Shown here: positions 22,479-32,001 of the stretch, piece by piece
How positions within the stretch are numbered: the stretch's first letter is position 1
Layout: every line of letters begins with the position of its first letter
Assembly: GCA_041640595.1 (NCBI GenBank)
Contig: JBEPZY010000001.1
Location: 544,001-608,000, forward strand
Direction of reading: 5' to 3'
From: Gemmatales bacterium
GTDB lineage: Bacteria; Planctomycetota; Planctomycetia; Gemmatales; HRBIN36
DNA length: 64,000 nt
The notes under the pieces: generated by a model
Told to the model about the DNA's origin: nothing
What the model saw: only the letters and a program-made list of their open reading frames with translations
Databases searched by the model: none
Made by a program: the position numbers and the translations under genes

Positions 22479-23171
22479 GTGTTTGCCGCACTGACAGCTC
22501 TAGCGATGACCGCCGCTACTGGTTTGTTGTGCGCTATGAGCCTGGCGGCTCGGGATAGCCATCCTGCAGCGGTACTGGTTTGGTTCGCGGTCGGGAGTAC
22601 CGGTGGGTTGTGCGGCGGTGTGGCATTCGCCTGGTTGGTTGCCCAGCTGAGGCAATTCACCGCTCCTCACCGCGGACAAAGGCGACCGGTTACTGGACAG
22701 ACATCTGGTTCGGTTAAGCGTCCCGATACAGCCGTCACCGAGACCGCGCTCAATCCAGGCAACTCCCTGACGGACGCTTCTCGAATGCCCGCGTGGAACG
22801 GTGAAAGCGACGATGGGAAACGTGTCCCATGGGAAGTATTAGCTGCCTGGGCGGATACAGGCTGGACGCTGGGATTAGCCGCGGTCATTGCATTAGATGC
22901 AAACGATTGGCTTACCTCGGATGACGCCTACATCTATTCGGCCATACTGCCGGTAGCAGCGGCTGGTGTTGCTGTTGCCTGGGGCGTCTTGAAGATGCGT
23001 CGCCGAGGGTTATGCCTTTCACCCGGGCGTACCGCTCTGGCTTTGGTCTGCGGATTGCTGACCGGCATGCTAGTAATAGCCGGCTGGGCTGGTCTGGGCG
23101 ATTTGATGCGTGGCATGCTGGCGGTAGTTGTCGGCGTTCATCTGGCAGTAACTTTCGCCACTATTGCGTAA
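22479..23171 (+). CDS. Hypothetical membrane protein
   Basis: About six hydrophobic segments with a polar loop; fills the gap between addA and the DoxX gene; no family recognised. Confidence 0.5.
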   Translation: MFAALTALAMTAATGLLCAMSLAARDSHPAAVLVWFAVGSTGGLCGGVAFAWLVAQLRQFTAPHRGQRRPVTGQTSGSVKRPDTAVTETALNPGNSLTDASRMPAWNGESDDGKRVPWEVLAAWADTGWTLGLAAVIALDANDWLTSDDAYIYSAILPVAAAGVAVAWGVLKMRRRGLCLSPGRTALALVCGLLTGMLVIAGWAGLGDLMRGMLAVVVGVHLAVTFATIA

Positions 23172-26723: not shown

Positions 26724-27299
26724 TCAACAATGACGGGATGGCCCACGATTTACGAACGAACTGAAATCATCCAAAACCATCGGGGCGTAGCTCAGCTTGG
26801 CGAGAGCGCCTGGTTTGGGACCAGGAGGTCGCAGGTTCGAATCCTGTCGCCCCGATTTGAGCTGACCCACTCCGAACGCGGGCACTCGAAATAGTCGAAA
26901 CCAGCCACTGCAAGGAACAAACGGCAATAGCTGCGGTCGGCGGAAAACAAAGCCATACATGCAAGGCGGAGCAAACCACTCCGGCAGGTTCCAGTGCAGG
27001 GCACTGTCCAATACGAATTGTTCCCGGTCGCAATATTGCAAACAGTCCACCAGTTCAACCCTACCGAGGATGCCACCACACAATTCCGCCAGCCGTCGGG
27101 CATTGTCGGGAATAGGCCACGGCACCGAGCGCGTATCCGGCTGACGGGCCGCATGAATCAATAACGCTCCGCGATACGATGTCGTCCACGTTCGGACTTC
27201 GATAGTCTTGTAGCCCAGGACCACCAGAGCGGCCCACGGTTGCTTCAGCGACAGGGCAATCGGCGCATTCTTCTGGTTACGGCGTGCGGAGCTGGGCAT
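26724..27299 (-). CDS. ASCH domain protein
   Basis: ALSLKQPWA..V..GYKTIEVR.W.T.YRGALLIHA, GGILGRVELVDC, PFVPCSG (ASCH GxKxxExR motif). The C-terminal tail overlaps tRNA-Pro antisense. Confidence 0.85.
   Translation of the reverse strand: MPSSARRNQKNAPIALSLKQPWAALVVLGYKTIEVRTWTTSYRGALLIHAARQPDTRSVPWPIPDNARRLAELCGGILGRVELVDCLQYCDREQFVLDSALHWNLPEWFAPPCMYGFVFRRPQLLPFVPCSGWFRLFRVPAFGVGQLKSGRQDSNLRPPGPKPGALAKLSYAPMVLDDFSSFVNRGPSRHC
26781..26855 (+). tRNA. tRNA-Pro (TGG); CCA not encoded
   Basis: Acceptor CGGGGCG/CGCCCCG, anticodon arm CCTGG-TTTGGGA-CCAGG, T arm GCAGG-TTCGAAT-CCTGT, discriminator A. Confidence 0.96.
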
Positions 27300-27610
27300 G
27301 ACAGAGTCCGGTTCATCCCAGGAGAGAAGTTTTTGCTGAGAATATGCGACGTAACGGATAAGACAAGTTTGCAGAGGATTCAGGCGTGAGCTAAACTTGA
27401 ACGGCTACTCTGCGACAAGCAAGCCAATACGGGACGAACGGCATGTTACGCTTGCCGTAGCTTCGGGGCCGAACCAGGCCGCTCAGGGCAACCACAACGG
27501 AAAGTGATGTCCCGGACCTGGCTTCAGGCTCGATTGCACTGAGCGCACAAGCACAACTGGACCGCGGAGCTTGGAAACTCTCCCAGCTGAGAAGAAACCC
27601 AGGAGGAAGC

Positions 27611-30600
27611 ATGCCGGTGCGCATCGAAACTGGTGCTGAGCCCATTCCCGGCTACCGCCTCCTGAACCGGATTGGCGGAGGAGGATTTGGAGAGGTCTGG
27701 CGTGCCGAGGCGCCAGGCGGTCTATTGAAGGCTATCAAGTTCGTTTATGGCGATTTGCAAATTTCCGGCGACGCCGATAGCAATCGCGCCCAGCAGGAGC
27801 TAAAAGCTCTCGCCCGTGTCCGTAAGGTACGGCACCCCTTTATCCTTTCACTCGAACGGTTTGATATTGTGGACGGGCAGTTGATCATCGTGATGGAACT
27901 GGCTGACCGCAACCTGTGGGATCGCTTTCGTGAATGTCGCAGCAAAGGATTACCTGGCATCCCGCGTTCGGAATTGCTCGGTTACATGGAAGAGGCGGCG
28001 GAAGCGCTCGACTTAATGAACATTCAATACGACCTGCAGCATCTGGACATCAAACCACAAAATCTCTTTCTCATCCACAATCACGTCAAGGTGGCCGACT
28101 TTGGCCTGGTAAAAGACCTGCAAGGCCTGGCAGCGTCGGTAACAGGCGGGGTTACGCCTGTTTATGCGGCGCCCGAAACCTTCGACGGCTGGGTGAGCCG
28201 TTACAGCGACCAGTATAGTTTGGCCATCGTGTATCAGGAACTGTTGACTGGAGTACGCCCGTTTCGTGCGAACACCACTCAGCAACTCATCCAGCTCCAT
28301 CTGACCGGTAAACCCGATCTGTCACCGTTGCCACCCGGGGATCGGCCCGTAATAGCCCGAGCGCTGGCTAAAACGCCGCACGAACGCCATCCGAGTTGCC
28401 TGGAAATGGTGCAGGCTTTGCGACAGGCCGGTGGTGAGTCTCGCCGCGTCTTGTTGCCCGGCTTCGTCGAAAACCTCGGGGACACTTCGCAGGCGGAATA
28501 CACGGCCAGCGCTGAAGAGCAGCAGCGCACCAACCCGGCTGCTCCTCTGCCTGAACAAGAGGCTGTCCCCGCCGATGCCAGCCGCACGCACGCAGTGGGA
28601 ATCGCTACGCAAGCCATGGAACGCCGCAGCGAGCGGCTAGGAAAGGGCGTGATCGTCCCGGCTTTGGTAGTGGGTGTGGGAGGCTGGGGATTGGCCGTGC
28701 TGCGACAACTGACACGGCGTCTGGCAGATCGATTTGGTTCCGTGCGGGAATTGCCACACCTGCGGTTGCTGCATCTGGATACCGATTCGGAGTCCCAGCG
28801 GGGTTGGGGTGAAGAGTTTCTTCTCCATGGTGGTGAAAGCTTGCTGATGCGGTTGCAGCGACCCGCGCGCTACCTGCGACCCAAAGATAATCTGCCCGAC
28901 ATCACCGAATGGCTCGACCCGCAGATGCTATACCGCATGCCGCGCAGTCAATTAACGGGCGGGATGCGGGCATTGGGGAGATTGGCGTTCGTCGAACACT
29001 ATCGCAATGTGCGTTCTCGCCTGCAACAGGCCTTAGAAGCCATCACGCAGCCCGATGCGTTGAACCAGGCGGTTAGTCGTTGCCAGCTGGAAATGCGTTC
29101 GGATTGGCCGCTGGTTTTTGTGGTCGCTCATCTGGGCGGTGGAACGGGAAGTGGGATGCTGCTGGATTTGGCGTATCTTGTCCGCCAGCTCTTACTGGAG
29201 CAGGGTTATTTACCGCCGCGGGTGATTGCCCTGCTTGGGTTAACGGACCCTGAAGCTGCACGGGCGTCGTTGTTACCCCTGGCCAATACTTATGCGGCCT
29301 TGAAAGAGCTGGAGTTTTTCCAGGCTGGGGGCAGGCGTTTCACGGCCCGCTACGAAGCGAAGGGCAGCGTAATCCAGGATGTTTCTCCCCCATTCACCCG
29401 GTGTTTCCTGACCAGCGCAGCAGACGAACGAAATGCGGGCGATGACGAAGCTGATGCCTCACTGAATAGCTCCACCCAGGCTGCCGATTGGCTGTATCGG
29501 GAACTTTTCACTCCCCTGGGCCGACAGGCCGAGCTGATTCGGTCTCTGGACGACTCGCCGCGTGACGGTGTCCGGGGTGTAGCGGATCCCGGCGGACTCA
29601 CTGACGGAGCTAATCAGCCAGATGAGCCGGCCCGAGCGTCAACGTTATCCCTTTTCGGCCTGGCATCGCTCGAACATCCGTGGCGGCAGATTGTTCACGG
29701 CGTGGCCACCTATTTGGCCGGACGCCTGGTGCGGCAATGGTGCGAAAGTTCAGATGAAAACGCAGTCGCCGAGCTGGAACAGCACTGGCAAACGCTGACC
29801 GAATCCCTGGGAATTACCCCGGAGACACTTCAGGTTGCTCTCGAGCAGCGAGCCGCAGAGACTCTTGGTCAGGATTTTGCCCAGGCAGTCAGTCGGACTT
29901 TGAAGGAATTGCGACAGCAACATCAGGATGCTGCTGCTTACGTCTGCGATGCGCTGGCTTGCTGGCATAACTGGCTTGGCAATCCTGACGAGTCGGCCGG
30001 ATCGTGGCGTACATTTGCGCTGGTGGAATGCTGGGAGAAGTTTCTCGAAGCAGTTTTGCAACAGGCATCGGAGGCTTTGCTCAACTGGGTCTGGCAATTT
30101 GTGGAAGTCCCTGGAGCTCGGTTACCTGCCGCAGAAAATGCACTGCGTCTGGCCATGACAAAGTGCGATTCCTGGCTCCAGGTTTTGGAAGCCCAGCAAA
30201 GCGAAGCCATAGGCAATCAACATGCCGCTGAAAAGGAGCTGGAAGAAGCTTTGCGGGAGTGGGAACGGGGCAGCCGTGTCTGGATGCTCGAACGGCGGAG
30301 CGAACATCGCCAGCTGGCGTTGTGGGAGCGTCTGCGCTCGGCTCTCGAACAACTGGCCCTGGCCCGATTTCGCCGCGTGGCTTGCGAGCAACTGGTGCGA
30401 ATGTATCTGAGCTTGCGGGGCGAGATGTCCGATCAGGTGAAAGAACTCAATTTCTGCCGCCGAAGACTCCGTCAGTTGGCCGACCAGCTCGACCAGGCAT
30501 TTCAGCAGTTGCCGCGACTACCCACCAAGCACGGTTACCTGTATCTGCGTGGGGAAAGTTTGCCGCAGGCAGTCGAGCACGCTCTGGCTGGATTGCCCGC

Positions 30601-31162
30601 GGAAATCACGCGGCAGCTGGACGAATACTTCCAGGAACGACTGCATCGCGAAGGAGCAACCCTTCAGCAATTCTGCACCGCCAGTGGCGATGCTTTGCGG
30701 CCATTGTGTGAGGCCATTGTCAGGGAGATAGAAAACTGGCTCGAAGCCAATTGGCCCACGTGCGACGTGGCCGACTTGCTGCTGCGACGGGGCAATGGTG
30801 AGCCGTCCATTCGAGCTACTATACAGCGTCTCTTCCAGCTTGCGGCTCCGTCCGCTGTGGCATCCCTGCCCGACTCAGGGCGCAGTTTCACGGTACTAGC
30901 CTTGCCCAACTCCGAAGCCGGCCGCCAACTGGCCCAGGTAGTCGGTGCGGTTTTACCGGAAGACACGGTATTTGTGGCAGGTGAGCCTCAGGAATTGATG
31001 CTGTATCGCGAATGGATGGGGGTTCGGTTCGAAGACCTGCCACAGCTGGGCCAGGAGGCTCGCCAGGCGTATGAGCAGGTTTGTTCCCTGGAGCATTTCA
31101 CGCCCCACAGTCGTCTCGACATTCCGGCTTTTCGCAACCACACGGAGGCTCTGGCCCCGTAA
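27611..31162 (+). CDS. Ser/Thr protein kinase fused to a tubulin/FtsZ-like domain and helical C-terminus
   Basis: AGGAGG RBS. Kinase IGGGGFGEVW, AIK, HLDIKPQN, DFG, YAAPE; then VGVGGWG, HLDTD, GMRALGRLAF, AHLGGGTGSGMLLDLAY, ANTYAALKEL. Confidence 0.9.
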   Translation: MPVRIETGAEPIPGYRLLNRIGGGGFGEVWRAEAPGGLLKAIKFVYGDLQISGDADSNRAQQELKALARVRKVRHPFILSLERFDIVDGQLIIVMELADRNLWDRFRECRSKGLPGIPRSELLGYMEEAAEALDLMNIQYDLQHLDIKPQNLFLIHNHVKVADFGLVKDLQGLAASVTGGVTPVYAAPETFDGWVSRYSDQYSLAIVYQELLTGVRPFRANTTQQLIQLHLTGKPDLSPLPPGDRPVIARALAKTPHERHPSCLEMVQALRQAGGESRRVLLPGFVENLGDTSQAEYTASAEEQQRTNPAAPLPEQEAVPADASRTHAVGIATQAMERRSERLGKGVIVPALVVGVGGWGLAVLRQLTRRLADRFGSVRELPHLRLLHLDTDSESQRGWGEEFLLHGGESLLMRLQRPARYLRPKDNLPDITEWLDPQMLYRMPRSQLTGGMRALGRLAFVEHYRNVRSRLQQALEAITQPDALNQAVSRCQLEMRSDWPLVFVVAHLGGGTGSGMLLDLAYLVRQLLLEQGYLPPRVIALLGLTDPEAARASLLPLANTYAALKELEFFQAGGRRFTARYEAKGSVIQDVSPPFTRCFLTSAADERNAGDDEADASLNSSTQAADWLYRELFTPLGRQAELIRSLDDSPRDGVRGVADPGGLTDGANQPDEPARASTLSLFGLASLEHPWRQIVHGVATYLAGRLVRQWCESSDENAVAELEQHWQTLTESLGITPETLQVALEQRAAETLGQDFAQAVSRTLKELRQQHQDAAAYVCDALACWHNWLGNPDESAGSWRTFALVECWEKFLEAVLQQASEALLNWVWQFVEVPGARLPAAENALRLAMTKCDSWLQVLEAQQSEAIGNQHAAEKELEEALREWERGSRVWMLERRSEHRQLALWERLRSALEQLALARFRRVACEQLVRMYLSLRGEMSDQVKELNFCRRRLRQLADQLDQAFQQLPRLPTKHGYLYLRGESLPQAVEHALAGLPAEITRQLDEYFQERLHREGATLQQFCTASGDALRPLCEAIVREIENWLEANWPTCDVADLLLRRGNGEPSIRATIQRLFQLAAPSAVASLPDSGRSFTVLALPNSEAGRQLAQVVGAVLPEDTVFVAGEPQELMLYREWMGVRFEDLPQLGQEARQAYEQVCSLEHFTPHSRLDIPAFRNHTEALAP

Positions 31163-31224: not shown

Positions 31225-32001
31225 TCACCGCGTGCCTGGAAACATCGGAGGTGTCTGTTTGCTGGTTTGCGTCTCGCTAGCCGAGGGCGGTTGGGCCTCG
31301 GGACTGTTTCCGCCCTCGAAGTCACGCCAGCGGTAACCGACGCCCCGCACGGTCTCAATGTTCGATCCAGCCTCGCCAAGTTTTCGGCGAAGCGACTTGA
31401 TATGCACGTCCACCGTGCGTTCCAGGACCATGTCTGCATCCCCGCCGGCTGCTTCCAGCAATTCCGTGCGGTTGAAGGCTCGCCCTGGCTGTTGGAGAAA
31501 CACTTCCAGGAGCCGGAACTCCGTCGGCGTGAGATGCACCGGCTGGTCACGAACGAACGCACGCCTGCTGCGTCGGTCGAGACGCACTATTCCGTGCACG
31601 AATACCTGCACTCCTTCTTCGCTGCCAGCCCGTCGCAGCAATGCTCGTATTCGCTGAATGAGCACCTTGACGCTGAACGGTTTGGTCACGTAATCATCTG
31701 CTCCGGCCGCCAGGCCGACAATCTGGTCCACTTCTTCACTGCGGGCGGTCAGCATCAGAATGGGCACTCGAGTGGTCGCCGGGTCCTGACGCAGCAGACG
31801 ACAGACTTCCACACCATCGAGGCCGGGCAACATCAAATCCAAGATAACCACATCCGGCGGTTGCAGTTGTGCCATGCGCACTGCTTCACGTCCATCTCCA
31901 CACCACATAACCTCGAAGTTCTCTCGCGTCAGGTTGTAGCGTAACACCTCAACCAGCCCGGGGTCATCTTCTACGAGTAAAATCCGTGCCGGCATGACCA
32001 A
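31225..32001 (-). CDS. phoB: OmpR/PhoB family response regulator, probably PhoB
   Basis: LLVEDD, ILDLMLP, GADDYVTKPF, LTPTEFRLL, RTVDVHIKSLRRKL, IETVRGVGY; follows phoU directly. Confidence 0.85.
   Translation of the reverse strand: MVMPARILLVEDDPGLVEVLRYNLTRENFEVMWCGDGREAVRMAQLQPPDVVILDLMLPGLDGVEVCRLLRQDPATTRVPILMLTARSEEVDQIVGLAAGADDYVTKPFSVKVLIQRIRALLRRAGSEEGVQVFVHGIVRLDRRSRRAFVRDQPVHLTPTEFRLLEVFLQQPGRAFNRTELLEAAGGDADMVLERTVDVHIKSLRRKLGEAGSNIETVRGVGYRWRDFEGGNSPEAQPPSASETQTSKQTPPMFPGTR

Follow-up and report, generated by a model that had tools for sequence, protein, structure and literature searches.

A kinase-fused FtsZl1 protein of a Gemmatales bacterium with a predicted tubulin fold split by a helical insert

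Introduction

Are the filament-forming elements of tubulins absent from the FtsZ-like proteins that planctomycetes fuse to a kinase, or are they only unrecognisable? This question of 2010 is raised by a gene at positions 27611..31162 of a 64,000-nucleotide stretch (the window; contig JBEPZY010000001.1, positions 544,001 to 608,000, assembly GCA_041640595.1) of a Gemmatales bacterium, which encodes a protein kinase joined to a tubulin-like domain. In predicted models of the protein the tubulin C-terminal domain is present, split by a helical arm, and the T7 trigger is the one element missing.

Published articles are cited throughout for the portions covered by the analysis. The FtsZl1 family was defined by Makarova and Koonin in 2010 by an FtsZ-like domain combined with a coiled coil and a helical end; planctomycete members with an N-terminal kinase were already noted, and neither T6-H7 nor an FtsZ-like C-terminal domain could be placed (PMC2875224). 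The kinase fusion and the unplaced T6-H7 and C-terminal domain are repeated in PMC9871819, and the supplement of 2010 lists members of Gemmata, Pirellula, Blastopirellula and Rhodopirellula together with an FHA-EAL association (PMC2875224). Among the accessory domains found only in cytoplasmic planctomycete kinases, the tubulin-like domain is the commonest (PMC11032199). The fusion itself is not novel, having been in print since 2010.

An initial annotation, made from the sequence alone, had assigned the protein to the kinase-fused FtsZl1/Tubulin_2 proteins described computationally, with no demonstrated function. Both points held: the protein matches PF13809, the family is that of PMC2875224, and no functional or structural study of a kinase-FtsZl1 protein was found in literature searches whose coverage left out most subscription papers. 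A split C-terminal domain of FtsZl1 was likewise not found in these searches. The protein is not discussed in the covered portions of PMC5147048, PMC6952346, PMC10632474, PMC12673574 and PMC10936438, and the strings "tubulin" and "PF13809" do not occur in the P. limnophila transposon sequencing (TnSeq) paper with its supplements or in the searched part of the PMC11032199 supplement.

An intact kinase-tubulin fusion gene

27611..31162, plus strand: kinase-FtsZl1 fusion gene, 1183 amino acids (open reading frame [ORF] without internal stop; Pfam; homologs)
27601..27606, plus strand: Shine-Dalgarno-like AGGAGG, 4 nucleotides 5' of the ATG (sequence)

The kinase-tubulin fusion is real and intact, and the gene is close to certain to be a clade A member (defined below) of the kinase-fused FtsZl1 family. 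Conservation was scored in 112 sequences of 1050 to 1310 amino acids, taken from 121 including the query, and in other sets of 109 and 133 sequences. The initiator M1 is aligned to a methionine in 95% of 112 homologs. Pfam matched Pkinase at residues 15-232 (E 3e-27) and Tubulin_2 (PF13809) at residues 352-707 (E 2e-47, 162.6 bits against a cut-off of 27, model positions 1-355 of 356), as the proposed profile search had anticipated, and the translation carries the motifs HLD (144-146), GxGGxG (355-360) and GGGTGSG (509-515). The initial description of the locus, with its ORF, two domains, motifs and neighbours, was confirmed, with one correction to the helical tail given below. As had been noted, the fusion has no transmembrane (TM) helix; the sole hydrophobic window, residues 346-364 (Kyte-Doolittle value 2.1), coincides with the opening strand of the GTPase domain and its glycine loop.

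A homolog search with residues 345-1180 as the query returned 173 proteins at E <=1e-10 among 8000 candidates scored, and a second search gave 361 representatives at E <=1e-30; the named relatives belong for the most part to Gemmatales and Pirellulales. An assembly artefact, named in advance as a possible refutation, was ruled out: among the matches listed, 112 of 120 homologs carry both domains (the other 8 measure 752-958 amino acids), and a contig of the independent hot-spring run X1 (28339-29004) spans the junction from the kinase end to the tubulin start, with no indel listed within the gene.

Predicted tubulin fold and helical arm

28652..29419, plus strand: tubulin/FtsZ-type nucleotide-binding domain, residues 348-603 (PF13809; fold searches)
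29468..29674, plus strand: H7-H8-S7 equivalents, residues 620-688 (DSSP of both models)
29681..30841, plus strand: helical insert (arm), residues 691-1077, within the tubulin C-terminal domain (models; conservation)
30881..31147, plus strand: second half of the tubulin C-terminal domain with the conserved end motif (whole-chain fold matches)

Element labels (T1-T7, H7, H8 and S7) follow the usual tubulin nomenclature, save for the T7 motif, which is referenced below. Two AlphaFold models were analyzed by a fold search against 48161 chains, by Foldseek and by DSSP: the full-length protein (mean predicted local distance difference test [pLDDT] 88.9, predicted template modelling score [pTM] 0.72) and the protein without its kinase (91.1 and 0.85). 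For the kinase-less model the top 17 of the 48161 chains were all members of the tubulin superfamily, with most of the chain covered in 16 cases, and the next unrelated match had a Z score of 9.4. Every Foldseek match listed for this model was a superfamily member, and only kinases were returned for the full-length model. The full-length model aligned to CetZ (PDB 3zid) over residues 348-1161 with Z 26.0 and a root mean square deviation (rmsd) of 3.3 (297/342). The predicted model thus holds the two-domain fold of the superfamily, with GTPase domain, H7 and C-terminal domain, and the tubulin-superfamily domain proposed from GGGTGSG and GxGGxG was borne out by the motifs, the PF13809 match and the structure prediction. 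By sequence, a PDB search reached FtsZ only at E 2.2, and a profile of the kinase-less protein gave coiled-coil noise at E >0.02.

After the GTPase domain the models place helices 620-633 and 635-648, strand 679-688, about 390 helical residues, and strands 1091-1099, 1120-1124 and 1128-1138. The insert measures 369-445 amino acids (median 390) in 109 sequences, and look-alikes of the arm in the Atlas were mostly Tubulin_2 clusters with scores <0.9. The chain ends in a motif of R1133, H1166, R1168 and D1170, of which R1168 and D1170 are kept in 133/133 sequences. Since the matches to the tubulin family extend over the whole chain, the supposed "tail" is read as an insert inside the C-terminal domain followed by the rest of that domain. 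In the models, then, the tubulin fold is complete: roughly 390 helical residues interrupt its C-terminal domain, the remainder of which lies near residues 1091-1160. Of the helical tail of about 500 residues in the initial annotation, some 390 are indeed helical, but they form an insert, and the last 90 or so are alpha/beta residues that complete the predicted tubulin fold.

Nucleotide site and missing T7 motif

28673..28690, plus strand: T1 glycine loop G355-V-G-G-W-G360 (conservation; weak HHalign)
28955..28981, plus strand: T3-like loop T449-x-G451-x-R453-x-x-G456-R457 (conservation; T3 label from its position)
29135..29155, plus strand: T4 signature GGGTGSG, residues 509-515 (sequence; conservation)

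The glycine loops are intact. In T1, G357 is kept in 133/133 and G360 in 126/133 sequences, and in T4, G515 in 133/133 and T512 in 117/133; a weak HHalign match to E. coli FtsZ aligned T1/T2 only (49 columns, probability 35%). In the T3-like loop R453, G456 and R457 are invariant (133/133) and T449, kept in 89/133, replaces the first Gly of the GAG seen in other Tubulin_2 proteins; at other planctomycete Tubulin_2 loci this loop reads G-A/S-G/R-x-x-R in 6/13, the pattern having missed the loop in the other 7.

The NxDxxD/E motif after H7 is the T7 hydrolysis element of FtsZ (PMC12583498). It is absent from the fusion, where no NxD is found and helices 620-633 and 635-648 abut at T634 and so leave no room for a T7 loop; the H7-H8 spacing is identical in 108/109 sequences. 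In a register drawn from DSSP and a by-eye comparison with E. coli FtsZ, ELIT-RP-G204-LMNVDF-AD212 of FtsZ faces ELFT-PL-G637-RQ-AE641 of the fusion, which is 4 residues shorter. Position 641 is acidic (D/E) in 115/133 sequences, is S, N and A in three congeners and is acidic in 1/13 Pirellulales-type sequences. GTP binding by the core is likely, and FtsZ-style assembly-triggered hydrolysis is unlikely. A phosphorylation-controlled polymer or GTP switch had been proposed initially; a phosphorylation-linked GTP module stays plausible on the sequence and models, and the dynamic FtsZ-type polymer is weakened by the absence of T7.

The proposal of Makarova and Koonin (PMC2875224), extended to this protein, would be a dynamic GTP-hydrolysing filament that shapes the Gemmatales inner membranes and is switched by the kinase. 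R453 acting in cis or the acid at 641 would support hydrolysis. Such a filament is a doubtful but serious alternative. The complete predicted fold, closest to CetZ, and the invariance of R453 and R457 speak for it; the missing T7 motif speaks against it. So does the position of the insert. The C-terminal tubulin domain forms the filament contact, and it is in this domain that the arm sits. Nor does the protein carry a membrane anchor, and the scanned clusters of neighbouring genes revealed no conserved membrane protein.

Kinase domain and linker

27638..28429, plus strand: Hanks Ser/Thr kinase, residues 10-273, non-RD (H144-L145-D146) (Pfam; conservation; PknB 1mru fold match)
28439..28609, plus strand: flexible linker, residues 277-333 (pLDDT <50; median identity 13%)

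The catalytic set of an active Hanks kinase is present (K43, E63, D146, K148, N151 and D163), covering the Lys-Glu pair, the catalytic Asp, the Asn, the DFG Asp and the APE motif, as expected from the initial description of an intact-looking kinase with HLD. H144, D146, K148, N151, D163, P188 and E189 are invariant in 112/112 sequences, K43 is kept in 110/112 and E63 in 109/112. Position 145 is Leu in 108, Met in 3, Trp in 1 and Arg in none of the 112, so the kinase is not of the RD type; since Arg is missing across the family and 27 of the 30 kinase motifs of this genome read HRD, HLD is taken to characterise this family of non-RD kinases and not to reflect decay. In the activation segment T178 is kept in 99/109 and T182 in 108/109 sequences. 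Median identity falls from 73% in the kinase to 44% in the GTPase domain, 35% in the C-terminal part and 21% in the insert, a gradient that would suit a kinase acting as the output. The linker varies from 54 to 146 amino acids across 109 sequences.

These features bear on a monomeric or dimeric nucleotide sensor, in which the tubulin core would read GTP, GDP or ppGpp and control the kinase by contact, with no polymer. Intact T1 and T4 with T7 absent would suit it, and docking is hinted at by the full-length pTM of 0.72, which is somewhat higher than roughly estimated for a kinase moving freely, taking the 0.85 of the kinase-less model as the basis. Against this stand the long, disordered and variable linker and the conserved arm, which a sensor leaves unexplained, and according to the 2010 authors the characterised superfamily members all form filaments (PMC2875224). 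A sensor is accordingly held to be decidedly unlikely.

Elsewhere in the genome, a pseudokinase without catalytic or DFG Asp motif is fused to PilZ (L133:2751-4547, minus strand, contig C1). It is among the nearest paralogs of the fusion kinase (135 bits, near a tie with 130, 129 and 127). Two GGDEF genes but no EAL match were found in the genome, and the pseudokinase-PilZ protein is a possible candidate for cyclic di-GMP (c-di-GMP) input.

Distribution and paralogs

A single Tubulin_2 match was obtained in this genome, which is 95% complete. PF00091 (Tubulin) was matched neither in the protein nor in the genome, with 13 of 14 controls matched, and the protein does not qualify as a canonical FtsZ. 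The samples described here overlap and are not independent, and a miss means "not found". Tubulin_2 was present in 15/15 genomes of the family and in 140/151 genomes of the order, where most had 2-4 matches (11/151 without a match); it was patchy in the class (135/301 genomes, not found in 166/301), with 65/71 in family f94, 15/17 in f101, 20/33 in f3, 13/78 in f2 and 4/60 in f96, and was found in 14/301 genomes of a phylum-wide sample (not found in 287/301). A gene that is near-core in its order and patchy in the class is unlikely to be a division protein or a mobile defence gene.

Replacement of FtsZ in budding division is the least probable of the explanations weighed and is considered most improbable. 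It would fit the lack of a PF00091 match in this genome, the absence of ftsZ from planctomycetes (PMC12673574) and the near-core state in the order. It is opposed by the misses in the class, which include most of two large families, by those in the phylum and in 11 genomes of the order itself, by the absence of division genes nearby and by the missing T7 motif. A class-wide budding role is weakened by the same patchy spread (4/60 and 13/78 in the two large families).

Trees of 62 and 88 sequences were built from planctomycete fusions only, the larger with three duplicate pairs. Two Gemmatales clades were resolved: A (59 tips, Shimodaira-Hasegawa-like approximate likelihood ratio test [SH-aLRT] 97), which holds this gene and tandem pairs of Gemmataceae, and B (16 tips, SH-aLRT 100), in which the T4 loop is one residue short in 10/16; the shortening indicates that the gene can be retained even as its nucleotide chemistry decays. 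Both clades occur in sister genera, and only A was found in the 4 genomes of this genus (78-95% complete). From the trees, this genus appears to retain one of two ancient paralogs. For the filament of Makarova and Koonin the tandem and paired paralogs recall heteropolymers, but in this genus a single copy suffices.

Tandem pairs of full-length kinase-FtsZl1 genes were seen at L021, L025, L027, L030, L044, L048 and L063, where the first copies group apart from the second copies and some loci continue with scpA. The fusion also occurs in records labelled "uncultured Alcaligenaceae" (L021, L054, L062, L064 and L068); four of these were placed in the tree, where they nest within Gemmataceae, and the labels are probably wrong. 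In the Gemmatales genus g240 all Tubulin_2 matches were weak (E 1e-7 to 1e-11), which points to a copy that has decayed or diverged strongly.

Gene neighbourhood

26724..27299, minus strand: ASCH gene, divergent, conserved neighbour of clade A (Pfam; locus comparison)
26780..26856, plus strand: tRNA-Pro(TGG), overlapped on the opposite strand by the 3' end of the ASCH ORF (same adjacency in 2/2 congeners)
31225..32001, minus strand: phoB, convergent, incidental neighbour (Pfam)

The neighbours had been named correctly as an ASCH gene, here seen to be divergent, and phoB, which is convergent. The initial annotation had implied an oddity in the fusion standing alone without its partners, and this did not hold. 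In a sample of 75 related loci (14 Pirellulales-type, 9 clade B and 52 others, including fragments outside the trees), an AAA ATPase accompanied 14/14 and an FHA-EAL gene 11/14 Pirellulales-type loci, and neither partner occurred at the 61 non-Pirellulales loci (9 clade B and 52 others). Isolation of the fusion is normal for the order. FHA-domain ORFs were seen at 2/52 other loci and vWA-type ORFs at 4/76 loci in a crude scan for the metal ion-dependent adhesion site (MIDAS).

ASCH was found at 19/52 other loci, 0/9 clade B and 0/14 Pirellulales-type loci, and 4-HFC-P synthase at 19/52 other loci; within 2.5 kb upstream, at loci with enough flank, the counts were 13/38 and 16/38. ASCH and tRNA-Pro adjoin the fusion in 2/2 congeners and 0/5 other loci of the family. 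ASCH marks an old gene order, and a functional link is putative at most. A link to phoB was rejected (beside the fusion in 0/7 family loci, with a PhoB match in 1/75 loci). The promoter and terminator scan stayed at chance level (1 found against 2.0 expected, and 8 against 5.2 +/- 2.0).

At L026, L029, L033, L041, L051 and others, ASCH lies upstream of the fusion, with 4-HFC-P synthase often next after it and hydantoinase-like and amino-acid-kinase genes sometimes also following; these are genes of the methanofuran pathway, and in this genome their homologs are scattered. A homolog (41.5%) of the Pirellulales AAA ATPase lies at L093:6554-7933 (minus strand, contig C3) beside TadB/TadC-like and CpaE-like pilus genes; with this homolog sitting among Tad genes, a link in trans to the fusion is unsupported. 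In the window, a membrane-like ORF of 230 amino acids without Pfam match lies between addA and a DoxX gene (22479-23171, plus strand).

The neighbourhood also bears on an anti-phage or conflict switch resembling the GAP1-N2/DO-GTPase systems that bear tubulin genes, in which the kinase would be the effector. GAP1-N2 systems do include tubulin-coiled-coil genes (PMC7159879), a connection of non-RD kinases to immunity is described across kingdoms (PMC8463890), and a GTPase-GAP1-N2 pair exists elsewhere in this genome. The fusion, however, is near-core, at a conserved site and without variable effectors; the GAP1-N2 tubulin theme is reported for Firmicutes and Actinobacteria only, in the portion of PMC7159879 covered; and PADLOC matches cover only the generic kinase domain and none of the tubulin part. 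GAP1-N2, present in 159/301 class genomes, does not track Tubulin_2 by family (44/60 vs 4/60 in f96 and 5/17 vs 15/17 in f101, in the same 301 genomes), and a link to it was rejected. In this genome GAP1-N2 is on contig C8 and a weak DO-GTPase2 match on C9, away from the fusion on C1. A conflict role is rated very unlikely.

The pair on C8 (L135:7246-9771, plus strand, at the contig end) consists of a Zn-ribbon P-loop GTPase followed by GAP1-N2, and a response regulator-GGDEF gene adjoins it; this is a GAP1-N2-type system of its own, truncated where the contig stops. On C9, a P-loop protein of 992 amino acids matches DO-GTPase2 weakly (E 4e-8; L136:7984-10959, plus strand).

Expression data

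In the Tuwongella immobilis proteome three proteins with PF00069 and PF13809 were detected as protein, and more than half of the cytoplasmic proteins were in the sodium dodecyl sulfate (SDS) fraction only (PMC8567305). The weakly detected Tuwongella pair is, by gene arrangement, probably the co-ortholog of this gene. A detergent-insoluble homolog would favour the filament of Makarova and Koonin. RNA run X1 covers all 30 bins at even depth, intergenic DNA included, and therefore reports strain presence and not transcription; runs X2-X4 cover little of the gene.

Proposed mechanism

The best explanation, which we hold tentatively and at somewhat less than an even chance, is a GTP-binding, hydrolysis-poor cytoplasmic signalling scaffold whose assembly switches on its own kinase. 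Its basis in sequence and models is a non-RD kinase on a flexible linker, a complete predicted fold, intact T1 and T4, a 390-residue arm and no T7. The core would bind GTP without the usual assembly-triggered hydrolysis. Contacts of the arm or of the tubulin surfaces would hold the protein in stable oligomers, either of its own kind or mixed with the clade B paralog in genomes that have one. Assembly would crowd the tethered kinases and lead to mutual phosphorylation at T178 and T182, and perhaps also at T449 beside the gamma-phosphate site. FHA proteins may then read the phospho-signal and, in Pirellulales, feed it into c-di-GMP control. The FHA-EAL gene beside 11/14 Pirellulales-type loci, the two old paralog clades and the presence in 140/151 genomes of the order were counted in favour of this scaffold.

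Several points weigh against it. Covariation by mutual information with average product correction (MI-APC) in 327 sequences was dominated by clade signal and gave no clear pairing of S7 with the C-terminal strands, as regards the split fold. The acid at 641 might be a stand-in for FtsZ D212, leaving room for hydrolysis, and the invariant R453 could be a hydrolysis residue in cis. With more than half of the Tuwongella cytoplasmic proteins found only with SDS, the homolog data show expression and indicate insolubility only weakly. Finally, since this genome has no EAL match and its AAA homolog sits among Tad genes, the Pirellulales partners need not apply here.

In a broader and unlikely interpretation, the FtsZ-less Gemmatales would build an unrecognised cytoskeleton from kinase-bearing tubulin-fold subunits with 390-residue arms and no T7. 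Clades A and B would co-assemble like alpha/beta tubulin, phosphorylation of the T3 loop (T449) would act as the switch instead of or on top of GTP hydrolysis, the assemblies would organise the folded inner membranes, and the single-copy protein of this hot-spring organism would represent the system at its simplest. With its split fold, its missing T7, two paralog clades and a single copy, the fusion is a well-defined target in a near-core gene of an FtsZ-less order with complex membranes, whose homologs are detected as protein in Tuwongella. The single-copy version of a probable hot-spring organism is convenient for structure and biochemistry, with D146, T512, R453, T449, E641 and the arm as defined targets for mutation.

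Comparison with known systems

In the GAP1-N2/DO-GTPase systems (Kaur et al. 2020, PMC7159879), as in the fusion, a tubulin domain is joined to coiled-coil or helical regions; unlike in those systems, no DO-GTPase, GAP1, FNIII or vWA lies beside the fusion. M. tuberculosis PknB (PDB 1mru) shares the kinase fold (Z 28.9, rmsd 2.6, 253/269 aligned) and the full catalytic set, whereas the fusion kinase is non-RD, cytoplasmic and without TM helix or PASTA sensor, and scores 88.5 against the NCBIfam PknB cut-off of 450.

The whole two-domain fold of the model is common to CetZ, TubZ, BtubA, FtsZ and tubulin structures (PDB 3zid, 4b45, 4ei7, 2bto and 2vaw). In this order of entries the matches were Z 26.5 (rmsd 3.5, 300/342), 25.1 (3.7, 313/334; CetZ2), 22.4 (5.2, 331/382), 21.6 (3.7, 325/413) and 20.9 (4.2, 279/315; Pseudomonas FtsZ, over chain residues 8-316). 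The fusion differs from them in being only 10-18% identical, in its 390-residue insert, in lacking the T7 NxDxxD/E and in the attached kinase.

With the planctomycete branch of FtsZl1 (PF13809) the protein shares the N-terminal kinase, the FtsZ-like domain with GGGTG(S/T)G and the long coiled-coil or helical region, here residues 691-1077. In contrast to FtsZl1 as published, the present models find H7, H8 and a C-terminal sheet that the insert divides. An operon with vWA, GTPase or OmpA genes is absent from this locus, where the neighbours are ASCH, tRNA-Pro and phoB; the vWA/GTPase operon is a majority and not a universal trait of FtsZl1. Other members of the order mostly have 2-4 copies, compared to the single copy in this genus.

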